A stretch of DNA of 64,000 nt from a bacterium (lineage in GTDB: Bacteria > Patescibacteriota > Patescibacteriia > SBBB01). The stretch spans positions 98,170 through 162,169 of the forward strand of contig SBBB01000025.1 of NCBI GenBank assembly GCA_005239895.1, in the 5' to 3' direction. The position numbers and the translations under genes were made by a program. Positions 7,667 to 42,515 of the stretch are shown here, piece by piece (the first letter of the stretch is position 1; each line of letters begins with the position of its first letter). The notes under the pieces are model-generated. The model saw only the letters and a program-made list of their open reading frames with translations. It did not search any database and was not told the origin of the DNA.

Positions 7667-7717
7667 AGCGACTTAACCAATGTTTGGTGGTTCGACCGCC
7701 AAACATTAATTCTATAA
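7667..7717. repeat. Half MITE-TIR (CTGTCATTCCAGCGA) fused to hairpin-B copy AATGTTTGGTGGTTCGACCGCCAAACATT
   Basis: Direct sequence match to the TIR family and to the palindromes at 8641 and 21769. Confidence 0.5.
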
Positions 7718-7771
7718 AAAATACAGGAAAATACTGCTTAAATTTAAACTAACAAGTTTTTAAATATGAAT

Positions 7772-8640: not shown

Positions 8641-8669
8641 AATGTTTGGTGGTTCGACCGCCAAACATT
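8641..8669. repeat. Hairpin-B palindrome AATGTTTGGTGGTTCGACCGCCAAACATT
   Basis: Identical to the copies at 7689 and 21769. Confidence 0.5.
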
Positions 8670-8693
8670 GGTTTTATAGTAAACTATAAAAAC

Positions 8694-9926: not shown

Positions 9927-9960
9927 ATAAATATTGTTTTATATAAATTTTTTAGATTAA

Positions 9961-10362
9961 CTATTTAATTAACAATTGATTAGCTTGTTTATCCATTTCT
10001 TCCCGATCTTTATTGGTTTTATGATCATAGCCCAGAATATGCAACATGCCATGCACGAATAAAAATTCAATTTCAGCTTGAGTTGAATGATGATATAAAA
10101 TGGCTTGTCTCTTAGATTGTTGATAGTCTATAAAAATTTCTCCTAAATTATATTCCGGATATCCAAAACTTAAAACATCGGTAACCTTATCTTTTTTATT
10201 ATACAACATATTTAATTTTTTAATCAATCTATCGTTTGTTATTACGAGTACTAATTCTGAAAAACAAGAATCAAACTTAGCATCTATTTTTTTAACCAAT
10301 GTTTTTAGTCGCGCTAATTTTACTATATATTTAGTATCATTATGATACTCAAATTTTATCAT
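9961..10362 (-). CDS. ybeY: Endoribonuclease YbeY (rRNA maturation factor)
   Basis: HGMLHILGYDH zinc-binding H3xH5xH motif, 133 aa. Confidence 0.85.
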   Translation of the reverse strand: MIKFEYHNDTKYIVKLARLKTLVKKIDAKFDSCFSELVLVITNDRLIKKLNMLYNKKDKVTDVLSFGYPEYNLGEIFIDYQQSKRQAILYHHSTQAEIEFLFVHGMLHILGYDHKTNKDREEMDKQANQLLIK

Positions 10363-13651: not shown

Positions 13652-13732
13652 TTAGCTTCTTAGCTTTTTAGCTTCTTAGCTTTTTAGCTTTTTAGCTTTT
13701 TAGCTTGTAGCTTATTAGATTTTTAAATTTTA
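13652..13732. repeat. Tandem array (TAGCTTYTT)n of about 9 units
   Basis: ttagcttct tagcttttt agcttct tagcttttt agcttttt agcttttt... read directly. It is the inverted partner of the array at 14603-14665. Confidence 0.7.
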
Positions 13733-13752
13733 ATTCAATAAACTTTATAATT

Positions 13753-14307
13753 TTATAAACTGTCTACTTTCTTGACGTGTGACTGAATATAAGCGTGCAC
13801 TAGCGCGCTAATTTTATTTGAAATAATTTGGGGATCTGCAACTTGCTCAAAAACAAAACGGTTTTTTTCAGCCGCGGTTTGAATATACACATTACCGTAA
13901 TTAAATATCGTTGGCAAAATGCCGTTTATTTCTATGGTTACATCTTGAACATTACGAAAAGATAGCTCAGATGTCACCCTAGAAAAAACACCGTTTTGTT
14001 CCGTGTTTACTATACGTTCATTAGTAATAATCCAAACATCTAAGTAATAATCTATGAAAGCATGATATGCAAATAAACACACATAAATATAATACAAGCT
14101 AATTAAAAAAGCAACCAAGGCATACACCTCATCCGAAATATTATCTATAAAAATATTAAAATATATAGCTAGGCCATATAGAGCCACTGGTCCGATTGCT
14201 AATAATATCCAAAAGGAAATATATCCCAAAAATATAAGCCAATGGCGACGAACAAGCAATATAATTTCTTCATTGGGATTTTTGTGAGGAATATAATGTT
14301 TTATCAT
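13753..14307 (-). CDS. Membrane protein with a bacterial PH-like (DUF304/YdbS-like) domain
   Basis: EEIILLVRRHWLIFL followed by two TM helices and a beta-rich tail, typical of the bPH_2 family. Confidence 0.5.
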   Translation of the reverse strand: MIKHYIPHKNPNEEIILLVRRHWLIFLGYISFWILLAIGPVALYGLAIYFNIFIDNISDEVYALVAFLISLYYIYVCLFAYHAFIDYYLDVWIITNERIVNTEQNGVFSRVTSELSFRNVQDVTIEINGILPTIFNYGNVYIQTAAEKNRFVFEQVADPQIISNKISALVHAYIQSHVKKVDSL

Positions 14308-14338
14308 ATGCCAAAGTTAAAAATTATAAAGCAGAAAG

Positions 14339-14542
14339 TTATAAAGTTGAAAAATCGCTAAATTTTTGAAATGACTGTTGTAAAATTAGCACAGAAATAA
14401 ATATATAAACTATAGTTACCCATATGGCCACTGCGCTATATTTACTAAATCTCATTAATTGAAATATATTAAACAGACTTAATAAACCCCATATACCCAA
14501 TAATCCCAAATAAATAATATAACCCAATGTTACAATAGTCAT
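14339..14542 (-). CDS. Small two-TM membrane protein
   Basis: 67-aa hydrophobic ORF co-oriented with the PH-like gene inside the repeat-flanked segment. Confidence 0.4.
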   Translation of the reverse strand: MTIVTLGYIIYLGLLGIWGLLSLFNIFQLMRFSKYSAVAIWVTIVYIFISVLILQQSFQKFSDFSTL

Positions 14543-14602
14543 ATAAAGTTAAAAAGTCTAAAGCTTGTAAAGTTGTAGAGTTTATTGAATTAAAATTTAA
14601 AA

Positions 14603-14665
14603 ATCTAAGAAGCTACAAGCTAAAAAGCTAAGAAGCTAAAAAGCTAAGAAGCCAAGAAGCTATTT
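14603..14665. repeat. Tandem array (AAAAAGCTAAGAAGCTA)n, reverse complement of the array at 13652-13732
   Basis: About 90% identical to the reverse complement of 13652-13732, including the shared start AAAAATCTAA.AAGCTACAAGCTAAAAAGCTA. Confidence 0.7.
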
Positions 14666-15874: not shown

Positions 15875-15899
15875 TACTTGGAAGTCCGACTTCCAAGTA
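15875..15899. repeat. REP-like hairpin TACTTGGAAGTCCGACTTCCAAGTA
   Basis: Perfect 10-bp arms with a 5-nt loop, the same family as 33065-33099 and 33520-33544. A GTAG motif is present on the minus strand. Confidence 0.55.
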
Positions 15900-21705: not shown

Positions 21706-21768
21706 AAAAAAATAATATTAATTATATTTATGTATTATAAATGATTTTAAGACATAATAGCAACTTAT

Positions 21769-21797
21769 ATGTTTGGTGGTTCGACCGCCAAACATTG
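21769..21797. repeat. Hairpin-B palindrome ATGTTTGGTGGTTCGACCGCCAAACAT
   Basis: Identical to the copies at 7689 and 8641. Confidence 0.5.
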
Positions 21798-21861
21798 AAC
21801 CTTAAAAAGTGCACCCCTTTTCTGTTTTATTAAAAAAGATTATGATATAAATGTTAAATTA

Positions 21862-22117: not shown

Positions 22118-22167
22118 AATGTTTGGGAGTTGAACTCCCAAACATTGATTACTCCCAAACATTGATT
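22118..22167. repeat. Hairpin-B variant CAATGTTTGGGAGTTGAACTCCCAAACATTG plus a partial duplication ACTCCCAAACATTGATT
   Basis: Outer stem conserved. The inner stem GGGAG/CTCCC co-varies relative to GGTGG/CCGCC in other copies. Confidence 0.5.
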
Positions 22168-25860: not shown

Positions 25861-25891
25861 TAATGTTTGGAGATCGGATCTCCAAACATTA
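25861..25891. repeat. Hairpin-B variant TAATGTTTGGAGATCGGATCTCCAAACATTA (plus a partial copy TAATGTTTG at 25846)
   Basis: Conserved outer stem; inner stem GGAGATC/GATCTCC co-varies. Confidence 0.5.
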
Positions 25892-25931
25892 AAATTTAAA
25901 ATATTTACTATTTTAACCATTAAAATAAAAA

Positions 25932-27367: not shown

Positions 27368-28108
27368 TTATAAACTCCCCATAAATACTTTTTCTAAAAT
27401 ATCATTTCCTAATAATTCTTGCGATGTTTTATGCACCACAATTTTTCCTTTGTCTAAAACATAAGCACGATTAGTAATTTCAAGCAAAGATTTAGTATTA
27501 TGTTCAACTACCATAATCGCAGTTTTATGTCTCTCGTTGATTTCTTTAATCTTTGCAAATACTTCTTTAACAATTTTTGGAGCTAGACCTAAAGATGGTT
27601 CATCCAAAAGCAAAACTTTAGGATCAGTCATGAGTCCTCTAGCCAAAGCTACCATTTGTTGTTGCCCACCTGACAATACCCCTGCTTTTTCTTTTCTCTT
27701 GGATTTCAACGCTGGAAAAGTATCCAAAACCTCAGTCATTTGTCTTTTAACTTTTTTAGAGTCTCTAAAAATATAACCGCCAATTTCTAAATTTTCTTCA
27801 ACAGTCATGCTACTAAAAACGCGTCTGCCTTGAGGTACAAAAACAATACCCATTTCAACTATTTCATAAGAAACTGGTTTTAATTCTCTTTCATGCCAAA
27901 ATACTTTACCTCCCTGAATGGGGGTTAAACCAAAAATAGTTTTTAACATTGTTGATTTACCAGCGCCATTAGGTCCCATTAAAGCAATAATTTCACCTTC
28001 ATCAATATCTATATCAACCCCATCTAAGGCCTTAACTCCACCATAATGAACGGAAATATTTTTTAATTGTAATAAAACTTCTTTGTTCATTTTTTTAATG
28101 TTATTCAC
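27368..28108 (-). CDS. livF: Branched-chain amino acid ABC transporter ATP-binding protein LivF
   Basis: GPNGAGKST Walker A, LSGGQQQM signature, LLLDEPSLGL Walker B. Part of the liv cluster. Confidence 0.85.
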   Translation of the reverse strand: MNNIKKMNKEVLLQLKNISVHYGGVKALDGVDIDIDEGEIIALMGPNGAGKSTMLKTIFGLTPIQGGKVFWHERELKPVSYEIVEMGIVFVPQGRRVFSSMTVEENLEIGGYIFRDSKKVKRQMTEVLDTFPALKSKRKEKAGVLSGGQQQMVALARGLMTDPKVLLLDEPSLGLAPKIVKEVFAKIKEINERHKTAIMVVEHNTKSLLEITNRAYVLDKGKIVVHKTSQELLGNDILEKVFMGSL

Positions 28109-28140
28109 TAGTCAAAACTCATTGTGTTTTATACTTAATT

Positions 28141-28330
28141 GTCATTCCCGCGAAGGCGGGAATCCAGGTTTATTCAAATATAAAAAATAAATAAAATTTA
28201 AACTTTTTTCAAAAAGTCCTCTATAAAAAAATAATTATTAGATTACAGTTGTAGTTTAATATTAATATTAATTGGTGCAATAATGATAAGTGTACATGCT
28301 TCTGGATTCCCGCCTTCGCGGGAATGACAA
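28141..28330. mobile_element. MITE-like element copy 2 (inverted orientation relative to copies 1 and 3)
   Basis: TIRs GTCATTCCCGCGAAGGCGGGAATCCAGG (28141-28168) and CTGGATTCCCGCCTTCGCGGGAATGAC (28302-28328). The internal sequence is the reverse complement of copy 1/3 internal sequence. Lies between livK and livF. Confidence 0.65.
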
Positions 28331-28396
28331 GGGTGGATGTAAATTCAAATTTATGTAATAATTCTTAATTCATAATTCATAATTCATAATTCTTTT

Positions 28397-29578
28397 TTAA
28401 TCTTCGTATTTAACAAACTTTCCATCCTTAACTGTTTTTAACATTATGGGTTTGTTAACATCACCATTCTTGTCAAAAGTAGTTAAACCACCCATTCCAG
28501 GATAATCTTTAACTACGTATAAATAATCTCTAATACAATCGGTTTTTTCCCCGCCGCACTTTTGAATAGCATCGCTAATCAACATAACAGCATCATAGGC
28601 ATTGGCCTCAAAAGCATCAGCATCTTTATTATATTTTATTTTATAAGTTTCGTTAAAAGCTTGAACCTTGGGATCATTTAAATCAAAAACCGGACTGCTA
28701 AAAATAACCCCCTCAGCAACTAAACCAATATCTAAAAATTCTTTAGTTCCAATAGCCGCACTGCCAGTGATTAAAGTTTCAGGAGCCAGTTCTTTAATTT
28801 GTTTTACTAAATTGCCAGCGTCTTTACCCAAAGCCACAGCTAGATAAAACGTTTTAGCGCCACTATTTTTGGCTTTTAAAATATCAGTTCTAAAATCAGA
28901 AGTATTTTCATCGTATTGATGATCCATGCTTATTTGACCACCTAATTTTTCAAATTCCTCTTTGAAAAATTTACTATAACTAATGGAGTTAGCTGATTTA
29001 GCAGTAAATAACGCAAGTTTATCAATGTTTTTATTTTTTAGAAATTTAGCCATTCCTTTTCCATGACTAACAGCGCTTTCTCTATTTCGAAAAACATAAT
29101 CACCAGCTTGAGAAATCTCGTCAGCCGCAGCAATAGGGGTAAATAAAATAACTTTACTTTGTTCAGTAATAGGGGCAATAGCTAAAACATCATTAGAACG
29201 AACTGGACCAATAACCACCTTAACTTTATCAATATCAACTAACTTTCTAGCGACTGAAACTGCTGAGTCTACCTCGCTTAAAGTATCTTCATAAACAACT
29301 TCCAATTTTAAGTTTCCCTGTTTATTAATTTTTTCTACAGCTAAATCTATACCATTTTTTAATCTTTCACCTAAAGAAGCGCCCTTGCCTGTAAAAGTTA
29401 AAGCCGCGCCAATTTTAATTGGCTCTTTAATTACCGGTTGATTTGTTTTAAATGTTTCTTTAACACTTGACTCATTTTTATTCATTCCATACCAAAACCC
29501 TAACATAACAATTAAAAATAAAACCACACCAATTATGATTTTTGTCCCATTAGAAGTTTTTGCGTCATTTGTATTCAT
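28397..29578 (-). CDS. livK: Branched-chain amino acid ABC transporter substrate-binding protein LivK/LivJ
   Basis: N-terminal TM/signal anchor, then a periplasmic-binding-protein type I fold pattern (IKIGAALTFTGKGASLG). Confidence 0.8.
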   Translation of the reverse strand: MNTNDAKTSNGTKIIIGVVLFLIVMLGFWYGMNKNESSVKETFKTNQPVIKEPIKIGAALTFTGKGASLGERLKNGIDLAVEKINKQGNLKLEVVYEDTLSEVDSAVSVARKLVDIDKVKVVIGPVRSNDVLAIAPITEQSKVILFTPIAAADEISQAGDYVFRNRESAVSHGKGMAKFLKNKNIDKLALFTAKSANSISYSKFFKEEFEKLGGQISMDHQYDENTSDFRTDILKAKNSGAKTFYLAVALGKDAGNLVKQIKELAPETLITGSAAIGTKEFLDIGLVAEGVIFSSPVFDLNDPKVQAFNETYKIKYNKDADAFEANAYDAVMLISDAIQKCGGEKTDCIRDYLYVVKDYPGMGGLTTFDKNGDVNKPIMLKTVKDGKFVKYED

Positions 29579-29793
29579 ACATTTTATGTTTAAAAATTAT
29601 TCTACTGCATACCACTGCATACCACGTTAGAGTATTAAAGACTTCTAACGGGGATCATATATTTTATAGTTGAAACTTAAATTATTACCATACTATAATC
29701 AGTATCTTATACAACTTTGGAAAATTTGTCTACTTAGTACTTTAAACATTTTCCGTAATTCTTATATCTTAAATCGTAAATCTTAAATCTATT

Positions 29794-30549
29794 TTACTCT
29801 CCTAAATACGCTTCAACTACTTCTCTTTTTGCTAAAACTTTATCAGGGGCACCTTCGGCTAATAACCTGCCTTCGTCCATAACAAAAATATAATCACAAA
29901 GTTCACGCATTAAACCCATATCGTGTTCAATTAAAATTACAGTTTTATTTTCTTTTTTAAATTCTTGAATAATATCCGCAAGCATTTTTTTCATTTCTGG
30001 AAAAAGTCCAGCAAAAGGTTCGTCTAATAAATAAATGTCGGCTTTCATGGCTAATATCCTAGCAATTTCCAAAAGCTTTCTTTGCCCGTAAGATAGATTA
30101 ATAACTAATTGATCTTTTTTGCTCCAAAGATTAATTTTATGCAAAACTTCTTCGGCAATTTTTAAATGATAAGTTGTGTGTTTTTCAAAAAGAGAACCAA
30201 AAATATTTCTTTCAGTTAAAACAACCAAAATATTATCCAACACGGTCATTTGTTCAAAAAGCCTAACATTTTGAAAGGTTCGCGTAATTCCGTAAAAAGA
30301 AATTTGGCGCGATAATATTTTATTAAATTTTTGAGCTTCATTAATTACCACTTCTCCAGCATCTATAGATAACATGCCACTCAATAAATTTATAAATGTA
30401 GTTTTCCCCGATCCATTTGGGCCTACTATACCAGTAATACTCCCCCTTTCTATGTTTATAGAAAGATGATCAACAGCGTGAACACCACCAAATTGTTTTA
30501 TTAAATTTTTAGTTTCAATAGCTAACATAAACAAGTTAAAAGTTCGCAA
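29794..30549 (-). CDS. livG: Branched-chain amino acid ABC transporter ATP-binding protein LivG
   Basis: LIKQFGGVHAV, GPNGSGKTT, LSYGQRKLLEIAR and LLDEPFAG motifs. Confidence 0.85.
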   Translation of the reverse strand: MRTFNLFMLAIETKNLIKQFGGVHAVDHLSINIERGSITGIVGPNGSGKTTFINLLSGMLSIDAGEVVINEAQKFNKILSRQISFYGITRTFQNVRLFEQMTVLDNILVVLTERNIFGSLFEKHTTYHLKIAEEVLHKINLWSKKDQLVINLSYGQRKLLEIARILAMKADIYLLDEPFAGLFPEMKKMLADIIQEFKKENKTVILIEHDMGLMRELCDYIFVMDEGRLLAEGAPDKVLAKREVVEAYLGE

Positions 30550-30582
30550 AGTTATAAAGTTCGTAAAATTTTAAAAAAATAG

Positions 30583-30867
30583 TTATTTTTCTAAAACAAA
30601 CCTTTCCACTAATTTGTCATTGAATTTTACTATAGAGAACCACTCATCAAGTGGCCTTGTAAATAATTCAGCGTCAGCATTTTGATAAAGCGGTTTATAC
30701 ACAACCATCCAAATATCATCATTAGAATGAATTGCAAGACCAACTACTTCATACTTGTCACCTTTATAATGAAGATATTTTTCGCCTTTCTTTGGTGTTC
30801 TTTCTGGCATTTTAGGTATCCATCCTTTTGTCATAATAAATATATTATCACAAACAAAACAATACAA
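30583..30867 (-). CDS. DUF1653-family small protein
   Basis: YLHYKGDKYEVVGLAIHSNDDIWMVVYKPLY...LFTRPLDEW matches the DUF1653 consensus. The true start may be an internal Met. Confidence 0.55.
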   Translation of the reverse strand: MYCFVCDNIFIMTKGWIPKMPERTPKKGEKYLHYKGDKYEVVGLAIHSNDDIWMVVYKPLYQNADAELFTRPLDEWFSIVKFNDKLVERFVLEK

Positions 30868-30873
30868 GAAGCA

Positions 30874-31824
30874 TTAAGAGCAAGACCGAGAAACTCCGTC
30901 TGCTAATCCTAGACATGTATTCATATTTTTATCAGAAAATTTTAAAGTCGAAATTTCTGGACTAGCCCGATGATTTAATACAGTTAAACCAGTATCAATT
31001 CGTATCTGATCTGGATATTTATAAGTTGTACTGTGTAGTTCATGACGCAAAACTTCTAAAGATAAATCGTTGTTATCACTATCAGTAATAGGAACAATAA
31101 GGAAGGGATGATCAAATGTTAAACGATTACCACCAAAACTACGCTCACTAAAAGCAATACCAATCGCAACCCTTATATTCTTCTGGGCAACTTCTTTTGC
31201 AAAATGAGACCTAGATATAATAAAACCCTGCGGTAATTGTTCAGTATTATTAAAACGACCTGTAGCATCATAATAAGCAACAAAGGCTCTATGAAAACCT
31301 TCTGGTCTTTGCATAGATAAATCCACTAAAGAATCTTTTTGCCAATCTATATGACCTAAATATTTAGTATTACAAATCTCGGCTAATTTTTTTGCCCATT
31401 CAATGGCGTAATAATCTGGAGGAAGAGATATATCAATTTTATCTTTATTTTTATTAATATAAACTGTGGCGCAACCACACTCTGCGTGACTATACACGCC
31501 TTTAATGTTTTTTCCTTTTAAAGCTTCTACCACTTGCTCTTGATGCAAAATACCAGATCCACCAATTCTAATACCACCACCAGATATACCTTCGTCAATA
31601 CAACGAACACAATTATCATTTTCTCTAAACATTGAATCTGTATTTATATTAGTATCTTCAATATATTTTTTAAAACCTTTTTCCCACAAAGACTTAAACT
31701 TATTTTTTTGTTCTTTCCAATATTCTTCAATATTAAAATGTTCTTCAGGCTCAGATAATTTATGCATATTTTTTATGTTTACAAATAATAATTTAAAAAC
31801 AATCAAAAAATAATACACCCACAC
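30874..31824 (-). CDS. Hypothetical Cys/His-containing protein (CxxC...HAECGC), function unknown
   Basis: 316-aa ORF with no recognisable family. The first 19 aa are possibly a spurious extension (internal MHKLSEPEE). Confidence 0.5.
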   Translation of the reverse strand: MWVYYFLIVFKLLFVNIKNMHKLSEPEEHFNIEEYWKEQKNKFKSLWEKGFKKYIEDTNINTDSMFRENDNCVRCIDEGISGGGIRIGGSGILHQEQVVEALKGKNIKGVYSHAECGCATVYINKNKDKIDISLPPDYYAIEWAKKLAEICNTKYLGHIDWQKDSLVDLSMQRPEGFHRAFVAYYDATGRFNNTEQLPQGFIISRSHFAKEVAQKNIRVAIGIAFSERSFGGNRLTFDHPFLIVPITDSDNNDLSLEVLRHELHSTTYKYPDQIRIDTGLTVLNHRASPEISTLKFSDKNMNTCLGLADGVSRSCS

Positions 31825-31974
31825 AATATAAGTGTCAAGTAAATTTATCTACCTAATATAACCTGTAAATTAAAAGAGCCCCTATGTTGCGATTGTAGGG
31901 GCTCACTATGTTAATGTTGCTTTTTTATAATGCGCATTTCGGTTAAAAAAACCAAAAAGCAGCAACTCTTCTAT

Positions 31975-32181
31975 TTATTTATCTGTCCTGGATGTTAATT
32001 TTACCTGCCATATATCAGTTAAACATAACATGAGTAAGAAAAAACACACTATCGACACTAAGCCTGCTACCTGAATGTCTGTAAAAAGAAACACTATAAA
32101 ACTTATGGAACAAAGAGCCGAAGAAAGATATACAGATACTACTAAAAAACTGGTTCGTATTTGCGTTATAAGATTTTTCAT
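31975..32181 (-). CDS. Small two-TM membrane protein
   Basis: SD AGGAGAA 5 nt upstream of the ATG; 68 aa, hydrophobic. Confidence 0.45.
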   Translation of the reverse strand: MKNLITQIRTSFLVVSVYLSSALCSISFIVFLFTDIQVAGLVSIVCFFLLMLCLTDIWQVKLTSRTDK

Positions 32182-32532
32182 GATGTTCTCCTAATTATTT
32201 ACAAGGGTTGATTAAATTTCAAAACTTCAAAATTAAACTAGAGATACGCCATAAGCATTTTTAGTTTATATTTAAGTTTACCGTAAATATATTTTTTGTC
32301 AACCTCGTTAGAGATTATAAAAACCTATCTTATCTATATTTTAGACAGAATTATAGCTACCAATTATTTAACCATAAATATAAAATATAAACCTCTAACT
32401 GGGTCAACCAAATATTTTTTAAAAAACAGGTAGGGAGTCATCCAATAAAGACTCCCTACCACCATAATAAACCGCAATAAACCGCGGTAATATTTTACCA
32501 AAAAAATACCATCATCTTCGTGAAAATTGATA

Positions 32533-32928
32533 TCACCCAAACGAACAATCAAGATCACGAAAGTTAATCAATATTCCTTCTGGTAACTTGGTTTTTAGCT
32601 CTTTTATCTTGGTTGCTAATCCATCCGAACACTGATTGTCGCCAATGTTTCGAGAAAGATTATAAACATTGGCTGTGCCCCAATAAACACGCTCCTGATA
32701 AATAGCCTTTTGGCCATAAGTGTTTATAACCACAAACCGAAGCATGTGTCCAAAATATAACTCAGGACCTGTGCTCCCAATTTGATTGCTATTGTTTCTT
32801 ACGACCCAGTATGACTCTGCCTCTACAGATTTGCAGCTTGACTCTTTCGCAATCTCTACAAGTTCTTCCATGGTCTCAACCTCGTACGGAAAAAACTGTA
32901 AAATTAAACGTTTAATAAACTCTAACAT
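32533..32928 (-). CDS. Hypothetical protein (131 aa from the Met with SD)
   Basis: SD AAAGGAGG 6 nt upstream of the internal ATG (MLEFIKR...). The ORF-track start at 32967 has no SD. Local GC is elevated. Confidence 0.5.
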   Translation of the reverse strand: MLEFIKRLILQFFPYEVETMEELVEIAKESSCKSVEAESYWVVRNNSNQIGSTGPELYFGHMLRFVVINTYGQKAIYQERVYWGTANVYNLSRNIGDNQCSDGLATKIKELKTKLPEGILINFRDLDCSFG

Positions 32929-33064
32929 GGTGGCCTCCTTTCGTGCGTCGGTTCTACTTAGAGCCATTGCCTAAGCTCTCTATAAATATAACATATTATT
33001 TAATTTTAACAAATTTTGTTGTTTTTCAAACAATTGCATTTTAAGTATATATAGAATAAACTAT

Positions 33065-33099
33065 GAAGCTACTTGGAAGTTTCGCTTCCAAGTAGCTTC
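33065..33099. repeat. REP-like hairpin GAAGCTACTTGGAAG-TTTCG-CTTCCAAGTAGCTTC overlapping the RayT stop codon
   Basis: Perfect 15-bp arms; contains GTAG; sits immediately 3' of the transposase gene. Confidence 0.6.
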
Positions 33100-33767
33100 T
33101 AATCGACTTCTAAAGCTTTTTTTCTAGACTGTGTGTCCTGCCAAGATTCTATAGCAAAGTCTAGATATATTTTTGGGTTTTTAAATTGATCTAATATAAT
33201 TTTTGTATCACATAAACCTTTCTCGTTTTTAATATATTCTTCTAAGCTAGATTTACTTAAACTAAGAATTTTATTTCCGGATTTATCTCGATTGTTCATA
33301 TTTATATAAGCGCTTAAATGAATCAGGTATCGATTATCAGATATATGTTTTGATTGAAAATTCCCCTGAAATAACACACCATTTCTTTTATATTTTTCAT
33401 TGAAATATTTAGTATAACCACCAATCCGTTGCATAAATTTTTCAATTCCTTTTTCTACAACAGGGGTGATAAGAAAATGAAAATGGTTTGGATTTATACA
33501 AAAAGCTATAATTGAAACCAACTTGGAAGTTTCGCTTCCAAGTTTTTCTTTGTCTTTTTTAAAAGAAAATTCATAAATACTCCCAATGGGTTCTAATCTA
33601 TTAAAATCTTTTATACTTTTTAACAAACGATCTAAATCAAATTTATCAAGAATTATTTTTCTTTTATCAACACCACGATTGTATATGTGATAATATTCTC
33701 CAATAATAAATTCATGTTTTCTAGTACTCATAAATAAATAATAACATATTTGGTTAATTAGTAACAA
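33099..33767 (-). CDS. IS200/IS605-like HUH Y1 transposase of the REP-associated (RayT-like) type
   Basis: YHIYNRGVDKRKIIL, HUH motif NHFHFLITP, and GVLFQGNFQSKHISDNRYLIHLSAYINMN (matching the G.LWQGR.KS...YL..RYIELNP pattern of RayT/TnpA-REP). The real start is probably the second Met (MSTRKHEF). Confidence 0.65.
   Translation of the reverse strand: MLLINQICYYLFMSTRKHEFIIGEYYHIYNRGVDKRKIILDKFDLDRLLKSIKDFNRLEPIGSIYEFSFKKDKEKLGSETSKLVSIIAFCINPNHFHFLITPVVEKGIEKFMQRIGGYTKYFNEKYKRNGVLFQGNFQSKHISDNRYLIHLSAYINMNNRDKSGNKILSLSKSSLEEYIKNEKGLCDTKIILDQFKNPKIYLDFAIESWQDTQSRKKALEVD
33520..33544. repeat. REP-like hairpin AACTTGGAAGTTTCGCTTCCAAGTT located inside the RayT coding sequence
   Basis: Encodes LGSETSKL in frame; same core as the 33065 and 15875 copies. 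Confidence 0.5.
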
Positions 33768-33813
33768 CCACTTAGGAGCAAGGCACCTAAGTTAGTAGGA
33801 AGTAACTCTCAGT

Positions 33814-34698
33814 TTACAATTTATACTCCCCTATTAAGCCTTGCGGCCTATAAAGCATTAATAAAATTAAAATAACTCCATATACTACTTGCCTCATTTG
33901 AGCGGCTATGTCTGGTGGAAAACCAACAAAACGCAAAATTTCAGGCAATAATATTAAAAACAATGCTCCCAAAACTGCGCCACGCAAATTAGCTAGTCCT
34001 CCTAAAATAATAATAGCTAGAATAAATATGGATTCGTGTATAGTAAAACTAGTGGGGTCAATAAATGTAATATAAGAAGCGAAAAGCGAACCAGCGATGG
34101 ATGCCATAACAGCAGCCACAATAAAAATCATTAATTTAAAATATAAAACATTGTAACCAAAGACCTCTATGGCCTTTTCATCTTCTCTAATAGCTTTCAA
34201 AACCCTACCAAACGAAGAATTAATTATAAAATATGACAAATAATAAATTAAAATTAAAAACGCAAAAGTAAGAATTAAAAATGCGAAATTATTCGAAATT
34301 AAAAATTGGAAATTAAAAATTTTTATTTCCGGTCTAGCAATGCCTGGTATACCCAAAGGCCCTCTCGTAACACTTTGCCAATTTAATAAAATCGCAAAAA
34401 TAATAGTATTAAAACCCAAAGTGCCCAAAGCATAATAATCGCCTTTAAATTTTGATAATACTAAACCAATCAACAAACTAATAACAGCGGTTATAATCAT
34501 GCCCAATATAATTGAAACAAAAAATCCCAATTTAAATTGAGTTAATAAAATAGCGGTAGTATAAGCTCCAATACCATAAAAAGCAGCATGAGTTACAGAT
34601 AACAATCCAGTATAACCTACAACTAAATTTAAGCTAACCACAAGCATGGCGTAAATAGCGAACAAAATTGAGAGATGAACTAAGTATTCCATAAACAA
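33814..34698 (-). CDS. livM: Branched-chain amino acid ABC transporter permease LivM
   Basis: Polytopic permease with the LivM-type pattern GYTGLLSVTHAAFYGIGAYT. Confidence 0.8.
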   Translation of the reverse strand: MFMEYLVHLSILFAIYAMLVVSLNLVVGYTGLLSVTHAAFYGIGAYTTAILLTQFKLGFFVSIILGMIITAVISLLIGLVLSKFKGDYYALGTLGFNTIIFAILLNWQSVTRGPLGIPGIARPEIKIFNFQFLISNNFAFLILTFAFLILIYYLSYFIINSSFGRVLKAIREDEKAIEVFGYNVLYFKLMIFIVAAVMASIAGSLFASYITFIDPTSFTIHESIFILAIIILGGLANLRGAVLGALFLILLPEILRFVGFPPDIAAQMRQVVYGVILILLMLYRPQGLIGEYKL

Positions 34699-34700
34699 TA

Positions 34701-34842
34701 AAACCCTAAACTCTAAACACTAAATACTAAACACTAAACAAAATAATTATAACACAAACTTTATACTCTAAATCTACCACAAATTCCACTATAAGCAAAA
34801 GAATAAACCCTAAACTCTAAACAAACTTAAAAACTAAAATAC
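34701..34842. repeat. Two direct copies of AAACCCTAAACTCTAAACA, the first extended into a (ACTAAAY)n array
   Basis: 34701-34744 and 34805-34842 read directly. Inverted partner at 35211-35255. Confidence 0.6.
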
Positions 34843-35205
34843 TTACGATCTACATTTTTCTACTATAGAACCAAAAATCTTCATCAGCTCAGTAACTTCC
34901 TGAATCAACTCATCTTTCTCTCTATGTTGATCTAACTTAGGCTCACTTAAAACCAACCAATACCTACTTTCTTTAGCTTCTTTCCTAGATATTTTTATTC
35001 TCATAATAAAATCTTTTTTACTTAATGATTCTTCGACTTCAATATAATTAGCCCCCACTGATCCAGCCGATCTAACCAATTGCTTACCAATTTCAATATT
35101 AGATATAGTTTTGGATAAATTATTTACATAAACATTAGCTCTCTTAGCAAATTTAAGAGTTCTGTCCCCTAAGTCATATTGTTTTGTATTTTGAATTTTG
35201 ATCAT
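34843..35205 (-). CDS. Four-helix-bundle protein of the 23S rRNA intervening-sequence protein family
   Basis: RSAGSVGANYIEVEES...SRKEAKESRYWL matches the TIGR02436/PF05635 signature (GS..SI..NIAEG...E..YWL). Inserted between livH and livM. Confidence 0.65.
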   Translation of the reverse strand: MIKIQNTKQYDLGDRTLKFAKRANVYVNNLSKTISNIEIGKQLVRSAGSVGANYIEVEESLSKKDFIMRIKISRKEAKESRYWLVLSEPKLDQHREKDELIQEVTELMKIFGSIVEKCRS

Positions 35206-35210
35206 TTGAA

Positions 35211-35255
35211 TTTGTTTAGTGTTTAAAATTTAGTATTTAGTGTTTTATTTTCTAA
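35211..35255. repeat. (GTTTAGT)n array, reverse complement of the 34701-34744 array; overlaps the livH stop
   Basis: TTTGTTTAGTGTTTAAAATTTAGTATTTAGTGTTTT is the reverse complement of AAAACACTAAATACTAAATTTTAAACACTAAACAAA. Confidence 0.6.
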
Positions 35256-36117
35256 TGATTCCGGTCGGTCTGAATATCAAAAATAGTATTAATAATCCAA
35301 AAGCAATGGCATCTTTCCATTCTCCGGATATTTTCCAAATACCAAAATTTTCTACAAAACCTAAAATAAACGCGCCCAGCACACCACCAAAAATACTCCC
35401 AATTCCACCAACAATAGAAGCAATAACACCCTTAAGCAGCAATCCTAATCCCATAGTTGGTTCAATACCAGTATCAAAACCAACTAAAATACCAGTTAAT
35501 CCAGCAATAGCTGAACCTATAAAAAACACCACACTGATTATCTTGTTAGTATTAATGCCAACTATTTTGGCTACTTCTTCATCGTCAGTCACAGCTCTGA
35601 CAGCTTTACCAAATTTAGTTTTATAAAGAAACAAAATCAGTCCGCATGCAACTGCAATAGCAGATATTAAAATAATCAGTTGGGTTTGAGTTATTAAACC
35701 ACCGAAAATATTAAAAATTTTTGAAGTGTCAATGTTAAATGAAAGCGTTTGAAATTGACTTGTAAATAAAATAGCAATTATGGCTTGAATGGCTGTAAAA
35801 GTTCCCAATGAAGCTACTAATAAAACCATACTGGACGCTTTTCTTTTTCTAAGCGGTAAATAAATAATTTTATCTAAAGCATAACCAAATAAACCAGTAA
35901 TTATAATACCTAAAACAACAGCTAGATATAAATTTAAACCCAAGGTTTTAGTAAAATAAAAAACTGAATAGCCAGCTATAGTTGCCATTACTCCGTGCGC
36001 TAGGTTAAAAAATTTAGTAACTCCGTAAATTAAATTAAAACCCAGAGAAATTAAAGCATAAACTGCTCCGGCAATAAGACTATTTAAAACCAATTGAGAA
36101 AAAATAGACATAGACAA
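35245..36117 (-). CDS. livH: Branched-chain amino acid ABC transporter permease LivH
   Basis: LivH-like polytopic permease (LNSLIAGAVYALISLGFNLIYG...). Confidence 0.85.
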   Translation of the reverse strand: MSMSIFSQLVLNSLIAGAVYALISLGFNLIYGVTKFFNLAHGVMATIAGYSVFYFTKTLGLNLYLAVVLGIIITGLFGYALDKIIYLPLRKRKASSMVLLVASLGTFTAIQAIIAILFTSQFQTLSFNIDTSKIFNIFGGLITQTQLIILISAIAVACGLILFLYKTKFGKAVRAVTDDEEVAKIVGINTNKIISVVFFIGSAIAGLTGILVGFDTGIEPTMGLGLLLKGVIASIVGGIGSIFGGVLGAFILGFVENFGIWKISGEWKDAIAFGLLILFLIFRPTGIIRK

Positions 36118-36120
36118 AAG

Positions 36121-36180
36121 TTGAAAGTTAAAAGTTTAAAGTTAAAAAGTTAAAGATTAGAAAGTTAACCCATTTTTTGT
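36121..36180. repeat. (AAAGTTAA)n tandem array
   Basis: ttgaaagttaaaagtttaaagttaaaaagttaaagattagaaagttaacc. Inverted partner at 36275-36320. Confidence 0.55.
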
Positions 36181-36196
36181 CATTATTGTAATTTTC

Positions 36197-36245
36197 TGTC
36201 ATTCCCGCGAAGGCGGGAATCCAGGAGCGTATTCAACGTGTAACC
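36197..36245. mobile_element. Solo MITE end (TIR CTGTCATTCCCGCGAAGGCGGGAATCCAGGAGCGTA plus about 15 nt), no partner TIR
   Basis: Identical to the copy-1 left TIR through AGCGTAT, then diverges; no right TIR within 300 bp. Confidence 0.55.
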
Positions 36246-36274
36246 CAGATTCACATAAAAATTAACAATAAATA

Positions 36275-36320
36275 ACCTTATCAACTTTCAACTTTCTAAC
36301 TCTAAATCTAAATATATAAT
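36275..36320. repeat. (CAACTTT/CTAAAT)n array, inverted relative to 36121-36180
   Basis: atcaactttcaactttctaactctaaatctaaat. Confidence 0.45.
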
Positions 36321-37482: not shown

Positions 37483-39261
37483 TTACAACGAAGAAAGTTG
37501 TTCAATTTTCTTTTGAATTTTTTCTTCTTGACCGCGGCGAGCAAAATCATAATTACCTAAATTTGCCAACATGTATTCAGTGACCAAAGGATAAACTTTT
37601 TGTAATAATTTAAATTTTTCTTGTTCAATATATCTATAATCCGTATGACCTTCGGGAATAGTTCGAAGCTCAATTTCCCAAAAACATTCCCGTAAATTTT
37701 GGAATTGCATAAAACGAATACGATGTGCTAAACACGTCGCATATTGCGCCAACTCTAAATCGTGTTGCGCTATTTTATAATACAAATCCTCTACTTTATT
37801 TATAGCTGAAGAAAACTCGCTATCTAATTTAGATTTTATTAATTCTGGAGCTACGTCATAACTATGATCACAAGTAAAATTTTGCTTTTGTTGCGTAAGC
37901 ATACGATGACGGTGCAAATCGCGCCAAGCGCCCAAATTCATAACGATTTCAAATCTAACATAAATATTTTCAAAAGCTCGACTTACTTTTTGCCACCTAA
38001 ATTTCCTATCTTGTAAATGCACCTTTAAAATTTCTTTTTTCTCTTCAACTGTTAAAGCTTTAACGGTTTGCAAAATTTTATTCCACGAAAGATGATTATT
38101 TACAGCTGAATAAAGAATTCCCGTAATAATTTTATCTTCTCCGTCAGTGTCAAATTCAACTAACTGCACGCGCGGACCAGTTTCTACTTCTTTCAAACTA
38201 TCTTTAAATAACCCTTTTACTACTGGCACGGTTTGTTTATTTTTATGACTTAAATATTTTTGATACTCTTCAATCATGTCTTTTCTAGTTTCATCTTTAA
38301 TACGCCTTAAAAATGAAGGTGTAATTTTATTCAACTCTTGATAAGCCATTTCTCCTGCCCAACGAACTTCTCCTAAAGAATGCCCCAAAGAGCGATTGAT
38401 CATGTGCTCAAAAGATTGCCCGTTGCCAAAAAATGTTACTTGCGAAAGTGTGGCCATGGGCAAAAGCCCCCTTAAAATATCAAACGCCTTCTTTTCTACC
38501 ACGGATTTTTTTTCTTCAGGAAAACGATCTTGCAACCACGCGGAAAGTTTAGGTAAAAGATCAATATAAGTTTCAAATAAATTATCCATAACAGTTTTAT
38601 ACTCTGCATCTAATCCTATATCTTTGAGGGTTGGATCAATATAATACTGATATTGATTATTAATTTTTTGAGCATAATTAACATAGCGCGTGGATTTTTC
38701 AATCGGAGCCAAACCAATTCTCTGATCTTCAAAATGTTTAATCACAATTTGCGAAACCCCTGAAAAAGCAAGATGAGTACCTGCCATTTGCGCAATAGAA
38801 TCATCTCCGTACTGAGCCAACCATTTAATATAAAAAGAACGAGCGCGCGGATTAGCAAAAAACTCCAACAAAGAATGATCCTTAAAAAAATTTAAAAAAT
38901 CATAAAGTTCCTCGCCATATTTAATAGTAGCTTGCCAAGCTTCGCTGGTTTCATTCTCTTGTCGAACAGGATTTAAAAAAGGATCTATAAATTCACGCAA
39001 AAAAATATGTCGCAAATCCGTCGTGGCTCGACTGGATCGCGAACAAAGAGCGCCAATTAATTCGGGTGATAAAATTAGAGGCACATACACAGATTTGTCT
39101 AAATTAGTAAAAAACGGCTGTAAACGAAGCTTTTCTTTATCTGTATACTCGTCTTTTTGAAAAAGTGGTGCAAATTCTTCTAAAGAATGTTTATTAATCA
39201 TATAATTATTAGTACTATAGAATTTTTTAAACAAATTATCAAGATCTGGTGTTTTTGTCAC
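37483..39261 (-). CDS. thyX: FAD-dependent thymidylate synthase ThyX-like protein (long form)
   Basis: AWRDLHRHRMLTQQKQNFT contains the ThyX RHR-x7-S signature. At 592 aa it is about twice the canonical length. tmk and xth are nearby. Confidence 0.5.
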   Translation of the reverse strand: MTKTPDLDNLFKKFYSTNNYMINKHSLEEFAPLFQKDEYTDKEKLRLQPFFTNLDKSVYVPLILSPELIGALCSRSSRATTDLRHIFLREFIDPFLNPVRQENETSEAWQATIKYGEELYDFLNFFKDHSLLEFFANPRARSFYIKWLAQYGDDSIAQMAGTHLAFSGVSQIVIKHFEDQRIGLAPIEKSTRYVNYAQKINNQYQYYIDPTLKDIGLDAEYKTVMDNLFETYIDLLPKLSAWLQDRFPEEKKSVVEKKAFDILRGLLPMATLSQVTFFGNGQSFEHMINRSLGHSLGEVRWAGEMAYQELNKITPSFLRRIKDETRKDMIEEYQKYLSHKNKQTVPVVKGLFKDSLKEVETGPRVQLVEFDTDGEDKIITGILYSAVNNHLSWNKILQTVKALTVEEKKEILKVHLQDRKFRWQKVSRAFENIYVRFEIVMNLGAWRDLHRHRMLTQQKQNFTCDHSYDVAPELIKSKLDSEFSSAINKVEDLYYKIAQHDLELAQYATCLAHRIRFMQFQNLRECFWEIELRTIPEGHTDYRYIEQEKFKLLQKVYPLVTEYMLANLGNYDFARRGQEEKIQKKIEQLSSL

Positions 39262-39268
39262 CCTAGTT

Positions 39269-40042
39269 CTATTTGATTAATAACCAAACTGGACAATGGT
39301 CGGATCCAAAATAATGATTCATAATACCAATATCATTAATTTTAGAAATAATGTTAGCGTCCGCGAAAAAATAATCTATACGCCAACCAATGTTTCTATC
39401 TCTCGCAAATGTTTTCATATCCCAATAAGTATAAGCATCTTTTTGATGGGGATAAAATTTTCTAAATACATCTATAAATTCATTCGCAACTACTTTATCA
39501 ATCCACGCGCGCTCTACGGGTAAAAAACCAGTGTTGTGTTCATTATCTTTAGGCCGAGCTAAATCCATTGGCGTGTGCGCGGTATTAATATCTCCACAAA
39601 AAATCACCCGCTCCCCTTTTTCTCTTAATTTCAAAATAAAATTTAAAAAAGCATCATAAAATTCTAATTTATATCGTAAACGCTCTGGACCTTGCCCGCC
39701 ATTAGGACAATAAATATTTATTAAAGTAAAATTTTTATATTTAGCAATAATCACCCGCCCCTCTTCGTCAAACTTTTTAATACCAATTCCGTACAAAACC
39801 TCTTGGGGTTTTTCTTTAGTATAAATTGCCACACCACTATAGCCTTTTTTAATCTCCGAAGAAGAAAAATATGAAGTATATCCTACTACATCTTTTATAA
39901 ACACATCTAATTGCTCAGGGCTAGCCTTGGTTTCTTGTAAACAAACAATATCGGGTTTAAAATCTTTAAATAACGGATCAAAAAAACCTTGCTTAACAGT
40001 CGCTCTTAAACCATTAGTGTTCCAAGAAATAATTTTTAACAT
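39269..40042 (-). CDS. xth: Exodeoxyribonuclease III (Xth/ExoA family)
   Basis: MLKIISWNTNGLRA...CLQETK...GDINTAHTPMDL...SDHCPV are Exo III motifs. The ORF-track N-terminus (MCTLLDSRLRGNDREK...) is read-through into the MITE TIR, so the start is set at the internal Met. Confidence 0.85.
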   Translation of the reverse strand: MLKIISWNTNGLRATVKQGFFDPLFKDFKPDIVCLQETKASPEQLDVFIKDVVGYTSYFSSSEIKKGYSGVAIYTKEKPQEVLYGIGIKKFDEEGRVIIAKYKNFTLINIYCPNGGQGPERLRYKLEFYDAFLNFILKLREKGERVIFCGDINTAHTPMDLARPKDNEHNTGFLPVERAWIDKVVANEFIDVFRKFYPHQKDAYTYWDMKTFARDRNIGWRIDYFFADANIISKINDIGIMNHYFGSDHCPVWLLIK

Positions 40043-40100
40043 AGTGTTATTTAAAATTTTTAATATATAATTTATACATTGTTGTGTTTCTACCTTCTCC

Positions 40101-40334
40101 CTGTCATTCCCGCGCAGGCGGGAATCCAGGAGCGTGCACATTTATCACCCTTGATCAAATTAATGTTAACATTAAACTACAACTACAATCCAGTAATTAA
40201 TTTTTTACAATATATTTTTTCAAATAAATCTAAAATCTATATTATTTTTATTGGTTAAAAATATATAATCGGTATTATTTGAACAAACCTGGATTCCCGC
40301 CTGCGCGGGAATGACAAAAAAATAGGAATGACGG
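40101..40334. mobile_element. MITE-like element copy 3 (TIR variant CGCGCAGGCGGG with matching compensatory change in the right TIR)
   Basis: Left TIR 40101-40130, right TIR 40289-40318 followed by AAAAAATAGGAATGAC as in copy 1. Internal TAATGTTAACATTAAACTACAA is shared with copies 1 and 2. Confidence 0.65.
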
Positions 40335-41600: not shown

Positions 41601-42515
41601 TTAAACCTGTGTTAACCAATCTGAATGTTCAGCTTGTTCGCCACGAACAATTTCAAAAAACGCTTGTTGTAGGGTTTTGGTAACTGGACCAGGTTTTCCA
41701 TTACCTATAACTCTTCCGTCAACTTCGCTAATCGGAGTTACCTCAGCCGCCGTACCTGTAAAAAATGCTTCATCAGCTAAATAAAGTTCATCTCTAGTAA
41801 ACCGTTCTTCTTTAACTGTAAAGTTATACTTTTTAGCTAAACACAATATTGTATCCCGCGTAATACCTTCTAAAACAGATGTTAAGGGTGTAGTTTTTAA
41901 TACTCCCTTGCGTACAATAAAAAGGTTTTCTCCCGGACCTTCGGCCACAAAACCATCTGTATCTAACATAATAGCTTCGGTATAACCAGCATTAATAGCT
42001 TCTTTTTTAGCTAATTGAGAATTAACATAACTACCTGTAACCTTGGCATGCGACATACTAGAGTTAACATGATGACGAACAAATGATGAAATACCAACCC
42101 TAATACCATTTTGCAAACCATCTTCACCCAAATAAGTCCCCCATGGCCATGCAGCTATAGTTAAATTAACAGGACTATTTTTTACATAGAGACCCATTTC
42201 ACCATAACCAATAAAAGCAATTGGTCTAATATAACCTTCTTCTAATTTATTCACGCGAACGGTTTCAATAATAGCATTTTCAATCTCTGTCACTGTAAAT
42301 GGAATTTTTATTTGAACAATATGGGCCGAACCTAAAAGACGGCTAACATGTTCTTTGAGTCTAAATATGGCTGTTCCGGTTTTTCCTTTATAACAGCGAA
42401 TACCTTCAAATACCCCCAGTCCATAATGAAGCGTGTGAGTTAAAACATGAACTGTTGCCTCTTTCCAAGGAACAAATTTTCCATCCATCCAAATATAATC
42501 AGTTTCTTTTAACAT
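41601..42515 (-). CDS. ilvE: Branched-chain amino acid aminotransferase
   Basis: Full-length class IV aminotransferase pattern ([25 protein letters not shown]). Confidence 0.9.

Follow-up and report, generated by a model that had tools for sequence, protein, structure and literature searches.

Contig SBBB01000025.1 of assembly GCA_005239895.1, from a bacterium of the candidate phyla radiation (CPR), carries a Liv-type ABC transporter operon whose genes are set apart by spacers filled with other sequence. The locus occupies positions 27368-36117 of the window, i.e. the whole stretch of 64 kb that was analyzed, which has a GC content of ~30%. It raises the question of whether these spacers arose by insertion, and whether the transporter genes have survived them. 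A first-pass annotation of the window had described a branched-chain amino acid (liv) operon broken by three independent insertions. We consider it likely that the locus is a working uptake operon of the HAAT family, and that unrelated selfish or accessory DNA has settled in its junctions, leaving the transporter genes undamaged.

Intact transporter genes and occupied junctions

The operon, all on the minus strand, encodes a livH-type permease (35245-36117; BPD_transp_2), a livM-type permease (33814-34692; PF02653, 160 bits), a livG-type ABC ATPase (29794-30549; ABC_tran, 103 bits, and BCA_ABC_TP_C), a livK-type substrate-binding protein (28397-29578; Peripla_BP_6, 189 bits), and a livF-type ABC ATPase (27368-28108; ABC_tran, 119 bits). 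The window proteins were mapped onto 80 liv loci with 10-kb flanks (L002-L081; 1.27 Mb from 80 Paceibacteria species); all 80 relatives retrieved with LivM were metagenome-assembled Paceibacteria/Parcubacteria (CPR) genomes. All five transporter proteins could be aligned with those of relatives over essentially their full length (55-77% identity, no stops); the alignments cover residues 2-290 of 290 in LivH (57-76%), 1-292 of 292 in LivM (64-77%, all 80 relatives), 8-251 of 251 in LivG, and 7-246 of 246 in LivF (55-74%). LivK matched profile positions 1-342 of 343, and the LivF translation contains the Walker A motif GPNGAGKS as well as LSGGQ and LLLDEP. The true start of livG is probably the ATG at 30528. 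All five genes are intact, as had been judged at first reading, and none proved to be a pseudogene.

Two BPD_transp_2 permeases, two ABC ATPases, and one Peripla_BP_6 protein on one strand within 8.75 kb make up the component set of the HAAT family (TC 3.A.1.4), with the same five component types as livKHMGF of Escherichia coli. The best NCBIfam matches were LivF, LivG, LivM, and the LivJ/K subfamily. The family assignment therefore held, but the more specific claim of a branched-chain transporter did not: every equivalog score fell far short of its cut-off (LivF 220 vs. 441, LivG 201 vs. 362, LivM 176 vs. 366, binding protein 94 vs. 477). Since, in addition, the urea-transporter subunits UrtE and UrtD scored equal to LivF and LivG, the liv names are used here at family level only, and the substrate cannot be told from the scores. 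The ilvE gene that had been noted at 41601 encodes a class IV aminotransferase (41601-42515). Strand and full length of the liv genes agreed with the first description; their supposedly canonical order did not. E. coli has K-H-M-G-F, whereas the window has H-M-G-K-F, which is common in Paceibacteria (G-K-F was also found in L006, L030, L034, L043, L051, L079, L080, and others). Many of the 80 loci contain 2 to more than 10 LivK-type paralogues interleaved among livH, livM, livG, and livF (e.g. L015, L017, L021, L076). Unlike the E. coli operon, those of the relatives hold up to a dozen binding-protein paralogues, which suggests that one transporter core serves many binding proteins.

The spacers of the window measure 552 bp (H-M), 3264 bp (M-G), 215 bp (G-K), and 288 bp (K-F). 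The nearest species by LivH+LivM identity (range 73-77%) were L014 (76.7%), L003 and L009 (both 75.7%), L011, L016, and L012. Their H-M spacer is 4 bp, or 68 bp in L014; livM and livG overlap by one base, and the G-F spacer is 4-12 bp. In relatives with the order G-K-F, the K-F spacer does not exceed ~50 bp; in the window, 192 of its 288 bp belong to a member of a repeat family. The G-K spacer is likewise longer than in relatives. The closest relative found by protein search, a contig of GCA_964395945.1 (L163), shows the order LivH (77% identity), four-helix-bundle (4HB) protein (87%), LivM (85%), and LivG (78%). As only 81 bp separate livM from livG there, L163 provides an empty site for the M-G block; and because it shares the 4HB gene cassette at H-M and not the block, the cassette is the older of the two. 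The comparison with close relatives that had been proposed at the outset thus returned compact or empty sites. Shared spacer content, which at every junction would have spoken for ancestral spacers, was seen for the cassette in L163 but not for the block.

The H-M junction of the 80 species holds a variety of other occupants: a 4HB gene in five species, an AbrB/Doc-like pair, a HicB/HicA pair, a NYN-like gene, an unknown 125-aa gene, an NTS-type hairpin element (L063), another miniature inverted-repeat transposable element (MITE; L060), and LivK paralogues. In L078, it contains a gene-less hairpin (9868-10001) formed by inverted TCTAATG heptamer arrays, with a 38-bp stem and a 45-nt loop. No inverted arrays flank the four non-4HB insertions tested at this junction. 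These observations support the earlier view that the operon junctions act as an insertion hotspot. In the window, we count at least four unrelated inserted pieces, namely the H-M cassette, the M-G block, the K-F element, and a solo element end upstream of livH; all three insertions originally proposed were recovered, and their number was too low by one.

The four-helix-bundle cassette between livH and livM

The cassette (34693-35260, minus strand) consists of a 4HB gene between inverted heptamer arrays and resembles an rRNA intervening sequence. Tandem arrays were called with Tandem Repeats Finder (TRF). The 5′ arm (35206-35260) is built of CTAAAYN heptamers and overlaps the livH stop codon. 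It is followed by the gene itself (34843-35205; 363 nt, 120 aa), whose product passes the cut-offs of both PF05635 (48.5 bits; cut-off 33.8) and TIGR02436 (67 bits; cut-off 24) and matches PDB entry 2RLD (E = 4e-12). Downstream lie a proximal GTTTAGN array (34804-34842), the sequence TGTTATAAT (34746-34754), and, ~60 nt beyond the proximal array, a distal GTTTAGN arm (34693-34742), which stops 8 nt short of the livM ATG. The first description of this spacer as a 4HB gene between inverted tandem arrays was borne out: the outer arrays (34693-34742 and 35211-35260) are 50 nt long and 78% complementary. Their duplex has a predicted energy of −38.6 kcal/mol, compared with −22.4 ± 3.7 for shuffled sequences (z = −4.3), and the minimum free energy and centroid folds both pair the arms. 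The stop codon of livH and the region where livM translation starts would both become part of the resulting stem (~45 bp). The cassette stands in sense orientation, with no recognizable promoter of its own upstream. No 4HB paralogue and no rRNA gene was found within the window, and no Rfam match at E ≤ 0.1 between 27000 and 36500. PDB entry 2RLD comprises five chains, a pentamer that we take to be comparable with Avd of diversity-generating retroelements. An Avd reading of the 4HB gene was dropped: its neighbors are only livH and livM, and no reverse transcriptase or repeat pair adjoins it.

Intervening sequences (IVSs) of 23S rRNA that encode this protein (S23p, 23S_rRNA_IVP) occur in Leptospira and Coxiella burnetii. 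The IVS of C. burnetii is 428 nt long, forms a 28-bp stem from terminal inverted repeats, and is excised by RNase III (PMC4990558); PF05635 genes have also been found in rRNA insertions of CPR bacteria (PMC11270868). The window cassette shares with the IVSs the protein family (PF05635/TIGR02436), a similar size (a 363-nt open reading frame [ORF] plus arms of ~45-50 nt), the position of the ORF within terminal inverted repeats, the orientation in the sense of the host transcript, and a sporadic spread suggesting horizontal transfer. It differs in four respects. It (i) lies in the spacer of a protein-coding operon and not in an rRNA helix; (ii) has arms of phased tandem heptamers, whereas IVS arms are unique sequence; (iii) would include an upstream stop codon and a downstream translation start in its stem; and (iv) belongs to a group whose arm mismatches show no sense-strand G:U bias.

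Within the liv operons, 4HB genes were found at H-M in five other species (L004, L017, L062, L038, L073), of which L038 and L073 carry a different subfamily with the motif NIAEGF. All five are bracketed by inverted heptamers, with differing units (CAAATTA, TCGAAAT, AAAGTCN, AAGATTT). On a neighbor-joining tree of LivH+LivM, these loci are scattered, and each has a sister without the cassette; three of the sisters have compact junctions, and the sister of L017, L015, has a LivK paralogue. The 1.27 Mb of the 80 species contain six 4HB genes or remnants, all inside the liv operon: the five at H-M and one remnant at G-F (L059).

A metagenome scan with an alignment of 4HB proteins returned 80 further loci at 58-75% identity. 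None of them lies in a liv operon; they sit, tightly packed between genes, in many unrelated operons. Inverted heptamer arms were present in ~55 of 68 evaluable homologues (z = 5-25 vs. shuffles). The family consensus comprises four to five NNCKAAA units upstream, in a fixed register and ending in ...CTAAACAAAYTCAA-ATG, and a complementary TTTGAATTTGTTTAG(NNTTTAG)n that begins shortly after the stop; the heptamers are thus phased from the ATG across the family. Where a cassette had two substantial neighbors, it was co-directional with both in 25 of 31 cases and antisense within a co-directional pair once. Arms pair better with the partner from their own element than with arms taken from other elements (34.6 vs. 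28.9; reached in 0 of 10,000 permutations), and the own partner was the best match for only 5 of 70 arms. Arm covariation was therefore given up as a discriminator: the effect is small, and an RNA stem cannot be separated from DNA inverted repeats by it. The sequence data are equally compatible with arms that act as an RNA stem, as inverted repeats of the DNA, or as iterated binding sites for a protein. A TGnTATAAT outward promoter between stop codon and 3′ arm, seen in the window and L163, was rejected as a family trait (4 of 72 members vs. 2 in a reverse-complement control), as was a linkage of RayT-like genes to 4HB cassettes, which was met once among the 80 metagenomic loci (L110), close to chance and with no hairpins around the gene. 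Genes of the 4HB type have been recorded in several cas loci, including a position between cmr3 and cmr2 (PMC3936711). We found no description in the searchable literature of a 4HB cassette outside rRNA with phased inverted arms that recurs at livH-livM.

Between the window and L163, the whole H-M spacer is ~90% identical at the nucleotide level and the 4HB gene 86.6% (87% at the amino acid level), compared with 74-80% nucleotide identity for livH, livM, and livG. At positions with identical amino acids, codon choice agrees in 76% of cases in the 4HB gene and in 57-63% in the liv genes. Such low divergence fits a later arrival, an exchange of cassettes, or nucleotide-level constraint.

Heptamer arrays are not confined to the cassette and precede 6-7 of the 60 window genes, including livH and livG. 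On the minus strand, we located GAATTAT ×5 just past the livK stop (28358-28392; period 7, 5 copies, 92% matches), AGATTTA ×5 in the livG-livK spacer (29756-29790; both units given in the sense strand), and an AACTTTN array directly upstream of livG (30533-30575). The region upstream of livH (36116-36301) comprises AAAGTTR ×7 (36116-36168), the solo NTS-type end (36186-36235), and an inverted CAACTTT mini-array (36281-36301); the two arrays would form a duplex of −30.3 kcal/mol, compared with −15.6 ± 3.1 for shuffles. In L005, L027, and L039, a single array stands right before the livM ATG with no 4HB gene. Heptamer repeats close to start codons are known as TAACTGA repeats from Beggiatoaceae, Cyanobacteria, and Bacteroidetes (PMC4679880). 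Like these, the window arrays are intergenic tandems of 3-7 7-nt units, affect a subset of genes only, point in the direction of the downstream gene, and stop a few nucleotides short of its start codon. In contrast to them, the window genome uses several units (AACTTTN, CTAAAYN, GTTTAGN, AAGCTAA), its arrays also form inverted pairs around a gene, and it belongs to another lineage.

A further structure with the layout of the 4HB cassette and other cargo was observed at 13652-14662, where 110-nt inverted arrays of the octamer AAGCTAAN enclose a small ORF together with the gene of a bPH_2 membrane protein (13753-14307). Its arms are 89% complementary (duplex −122.7 kcal/mol, z = −22), and the array on the 3′ side doubles as the leader of the next gene (12186-13643).

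The livM-livG block and the hairpin elements

The block between livM and livG had been described as ~3.2 kb with a RayT transposase, a DUF1653 protein, a Cys-rich 316-aa protein, small membrane proteins, and patches of higher GC. These contents were recovered within the 3264 bp, all on the minus strand, with two changes of name. The gene next to livM (33099-33767; 210 aa as called, 33099-33731) encodes a Y1/HUH protein (PF01797, 35 bits; cut-off 23; profile positions 38-119) with the HUH motif NPNHFHF and the tyrosine motif YINMNN, both conserved in the family alignment. It stays below the NCBIfam REP_Tyr_transpos cut-off (26.6 vs. 80 bits) and has no PDB relative by sequence; the name RayT would therefore hold only at the level of the Pfam family Y1_Tnp. 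The family is large and well conserved in Patescibacteria (5990 homologues, the best 70-77% identical; RayT in the JGI nomenclature), and homologues in other genomes lie between split transketolase genes (L164 and L165/L166) or at other sites. The window has a single copy and no paralogue.

At the stop codon of the RayT-like gene lies a hairpin resembling a repetitive extragenic palindrome (REP), GAAGCTACTTGGAAGCGAAACTTCCAAGTAGCTTC, which is also terminator-like (33065-33099), and a second copy inside the ORF (33520-33544) encodes KLGSETSKL. This hairpin (CTTGGAAG-N5-CTTCCAAG, with CTAC/GTAG) occurs three times in 64 kb, compared with 0.01 expected (third copy at 15877-15897), and forms no doublets. 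Family members contain the peptide LGSPT(S/T)K, which the hairpin encodes, at two or three sites each, so that the Y1 gene seems to carry its own palindromes in frame.

The RayT-like gene is followed by an ORFan of 131/144 aa (32533-32967), which has a raised GC content (0.37-0.41 vs. ~0.30 elsewhere) and for which a search of 1.84 billion representative proteins returned only itself and two weak matches. Next come a small membrane ORF (32364-32558) and a 68-aa two-helix membrane ORF (31975-32181) with an AGGAG ribosome-binding site and a promoter-like site (32275-32302). The latter had no family match in Pfam, PHROGs, and PADLOC scans, and, since it was not called on the independent contig L001, is uncertain as a gene. 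Behind it, a terminator-like hairpin (31869-31904; gagcccctac...ggggctc, then TTTTAATTT) was read from the sequence; the terminator scan had missed it because its loop exceeds 8 nt.

The former Cys-rich 316-aa protein (ORF 30874-31824) is now placed at 297 aa (30874-31767), with a promoter-like site at 31810-31838 that fits 11 of 12 promoter positions. No Pfam family matched it; a structure model (pLDDT 85.7) predicts a beta-carbonic-anhydrase (CsoSCA-like) fold, and the invariant residues C56, D58, H94, and C97 fit a CxD...HxxC zinc site. Fusions to FliL domains occur in two distant homologues. The genome of L163 has a homologue with 81% amino acid and 84% nucleotide identity and little silent divergence, which adjoins a tRNA gene in a different neighborhood. 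A DUF1653 protein (30583-30867; PF07866, 66 bits) is encoded at the end of the block, 33 bp before livG. In L042, a homologous gene (3229-3474) precedes livH by 12 bp, through either a recurrent association with liv genes or chance, and L020 has another one near its liv operon. A phage or defense origin of the block was considered and rejected: PHROGs gave two weak matches of unknown function, both for the DUF1653 protein, and PADLOC none. The block is probably a mosaic from more than one event. From the predicted signals, livH-4HB-livM(-Y1) and [297-aa gene]-DUF1653-livG-livK-livF may form two transcription units.

In the K-F spacer, two inverted NTS/dRS3-type hairpins TGTCATTCCCGCGAAGGCGGGAATCCAGG surround a spacer of ~130 nt (28139-28330). 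The window contains three full copies of this element (2280-2455, 28139-28330, and 40100-40320) and the solo end upstream of livH, all with the same hairpin ends and a conserved internal core. It had been called a MITE; repeat membership and terminal inverted repeats were found, but no direct repeat (target-site duplication) flanks any of the three copies, as a classical (DDE-type) MITE would require. The flanks are C-rich on the left and A-rich on the right. The element consists of two inverted, extragenic, repeated REP palindromes, which is the makeup of a REPIN, and from its sequence would best be called a REPIN-like doublet of NTS-type hairpins.

REPINs usually measure ~100 bp in total and occur in hundreds of copies. 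Elements in the window, by contrast, are 176-221 bp long with 110-160 nt between the hairpins, and number 3.5 copies in 64 kb. The likeness to REPIN-RAYT systems (Bertels and Rainey) lies in the extragenic position, the multiple copies, the lack of target duplication, and the presence nearby of a Y1/HUH gene that is single-copy and highly conserved. The described systems, however, come mainly from Proteobacteria, and the present host belongs to the CPR. The hairpin end TGTCATTCCCGCGAAGGCGGGAATCCAG fits the NTS consensus CGTCATTCCCGCGMAVGCGGGAATCYRG except for its first base. The Neisseria Transformation Sequence (NTS) is the substrate of the GIY-YIG single-strand nuclease SsnA (PMC11893778), and the hairpin core matches, apart from variable loop bases, the Neisseria REP/REPIN 21-mer ATTCCCGCGCAGGCGGGAATC, which has been linked to a Group 2 RAYT (bioRxiv 10.1101/2021.07.10.451892). 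The same hairpin occurs in the liv spacers of L040 (M-G, as a short doublet) and L063 (H-M), and the motif was found in more than 120 IMG/VR contigs.

In viral or proviral IMG/VR contigs with a GC content of 32-72% (L168-L247), the 21 specified bases GTCATTCCCGC-N4-GCGGGAATCC are unchanged; some motif contigs carry Neisseria uptake sequences, and the commonest loops are GCAG, GAAG, and GAAA. A second palindrome family in the window, AATGTTTGG-N-CCAAACATT, has 5-6 intergenic copies (7679-7721, 8641-8683, 21768-21810, 22118-22160, 25862-25904), with one copy nested inside the NTS-type element at 2280-2455. The listed ORF of an Exo_endo_phos protein (39269-40141) extends into an NTS-type element end at 40100-40141 and adjoins the gene of a ThyX-like protein (37483-39261; 592 aa) that has two Thy1 stretches.

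Competing explanations and significance

The sequence of events that we propose is as follows. The 4HB cassette would have entered the H-M junction before the window genome and its closest known relative diverged, and a younger mosaic of 3.26 kb would later have filled the livM-livG junction. Two terminator-like hairpins may now end the livH-livM transcript, and the strong predicted promoter before the carbonic-anhydrase-like gene may drive DUF1653-livG-livK-livF, so that the operon would work as two units. A Y1 (RAYT) or GIY-YIG (Ssn) enzyme from another part of the genome could act on the NTS/dRS3-type ends in single-stranded form.

Several observations weigh against this account. The closest relative found has a LivM identity of 85%, so that no junction can be dated precisely; its contig does not reach the K-F junction, and, as it also has the cassette, vertical inheritance would follow from that comparison alone. 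Neither the block nor the 4HB cassette shows target-site duplications or sharp ends. The hairpins that flank the RayT-like gene are of a different type than the ends of the REPIN-like element, and the window contains no GIY-YIG (Ssn) gene by regular expression or by a Pfam scan of 47 ORFs. Arm complementarity reflects mostly the family-wide heptamer consensus and not element-specific covariation. Among the arm mismatches of 57 cassettes, sense-strand G:U pairs are not in excess (121 G:U vs. 128 A:C), which lends no support to selection at the RNA level, and the fold of the whole spacer reaches only z = −1.08; for these two reasons, an RNA stem is not demonstrated. The transcription units, finally, are predicted only.

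Could the spacers instead be ancestral in this Paceibacteria lineage, with compact relatives derived by deletion? The cassette shared with L163, the long, gene-filled liv spacers of many Paceibacteria (mostly LivK paralogues), and the DUF1653 genes adjoining the liv genes of L042 and lying near those of L020 would agree with such a history. It would, however, need many independent and precise losses, given the scattered 4HB loci with cassette-free sisters, and it leaves two 4HB subfamilies in one junction. Moreover, silent-site divergence is lower in the cassette and the carbonic-anhydrase-like gene than in the liv genes, the genes of the M-G block are missing from this junction in L163 and were found elsewhere or nowhere else, and the hairpin element is a multi-copy repeat. 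We therefore regard ancestral content as improbable. Still further from likely is an arrangement produced in part by assembly, with repeats joining unrelated contigs. Short repeats are abundant here and can mislead short-read assemblers, but the exact LivM product and its neighboring proteins are present both on the NCBI contig, which spans 194,557 bp, and on an independently assembled Logan contig (L001; 4134 bp, run SRR6943130). L001 matches the window from the 4HB gene through LivM, the RayT-like gene, the ORFan, and small ORFs into the 297-aa carbonic-anhydrase-like gene at 98-100% protein identity, which argues against misassembly in that stretch; it stops short of the DUF1653-livG junction and the K-F spacer. 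L163 independently has LivH-4HB-LivM-LivG.

For the 4HB cassette itself, a role as a host regulatory module, retained because it is useful, was also weighed. The heptamer arrays would then be binding sites or leaders, through which the oligomeric 4HB protein, or another protein that binds RNA or single-stranded DNA, couples the translation of livH to that of livM or uncouples the two. Between the window and L163, the 4HB protein is indeed more conserved than LivH (87% vs. 77%), and the phasing from the ATG as well as the single arrays before livM in species with no 4HB gene, and before a handful of window genes, livH and livG among them, would suit such a role. The 3′ arm reads UAG-N4-UAG-N4..., a spacing that presumably resembles the one bound by ring-shaped RNA-binding proteins such as HutP. 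Yet most liv operons, including those of the nearest species, lack the cassette, homologous cassettes lie in many unrelated operons, and only 6-7 of 60 window genes have arrays. Heptamer units vary from gene to gene within a genome, so that no single protein can read all of them. The toxin-antitoxin pairs and MITEs that other species have at H-M suggest that the site is permissive, not that regulation requires an insert there. A regulatory module thus seems unlikely to us. Insertion into a permissive junction remains our preferred reading, and we tentatively extend it to the family, as a conjecture with a limited chance of being right: 4HB "IVS protein" genes may be the cargo of mobile cassettes with inverted, phased heptamer arms that enter transcribed spacers in the sense orientation, with rRNA helices merely their best-known site and a strong preference for livH-livM in Paceibacteria. 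The oligomeric 4HB protein might bind the 4-7 arm heptamers as single-stranded nucleic acid, for spread or for transcript processing.

Selfish DNA gathering in operon spacers is the ordinary part of these findings; the unusual part is an IVS-like 4HB cassette outside rRNA that recurs at livH-livM. The function and mobility of the rRNA-IVS protein have been unexplained since the early 1990s, and the cassette offers a defined element and target for addressing them. The same pattern may explain the 4HB-type genes in cas and other operons, which have been read as functional partners (PMC3936711). The NTS/dRS3-type hairpin of Neisseria extends into the CPR, and a 3-kb insertion can, as its predicted signals suggest, divide an uptake operon in two and probably supply the distal part with a new promoter. 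Streamlined CPR genomes thus tolerate varied selfish passengers, from toxin-antitoxin pairs and NYN genes to REPIN-like elements and 4HB cassettes, at particular junctions.

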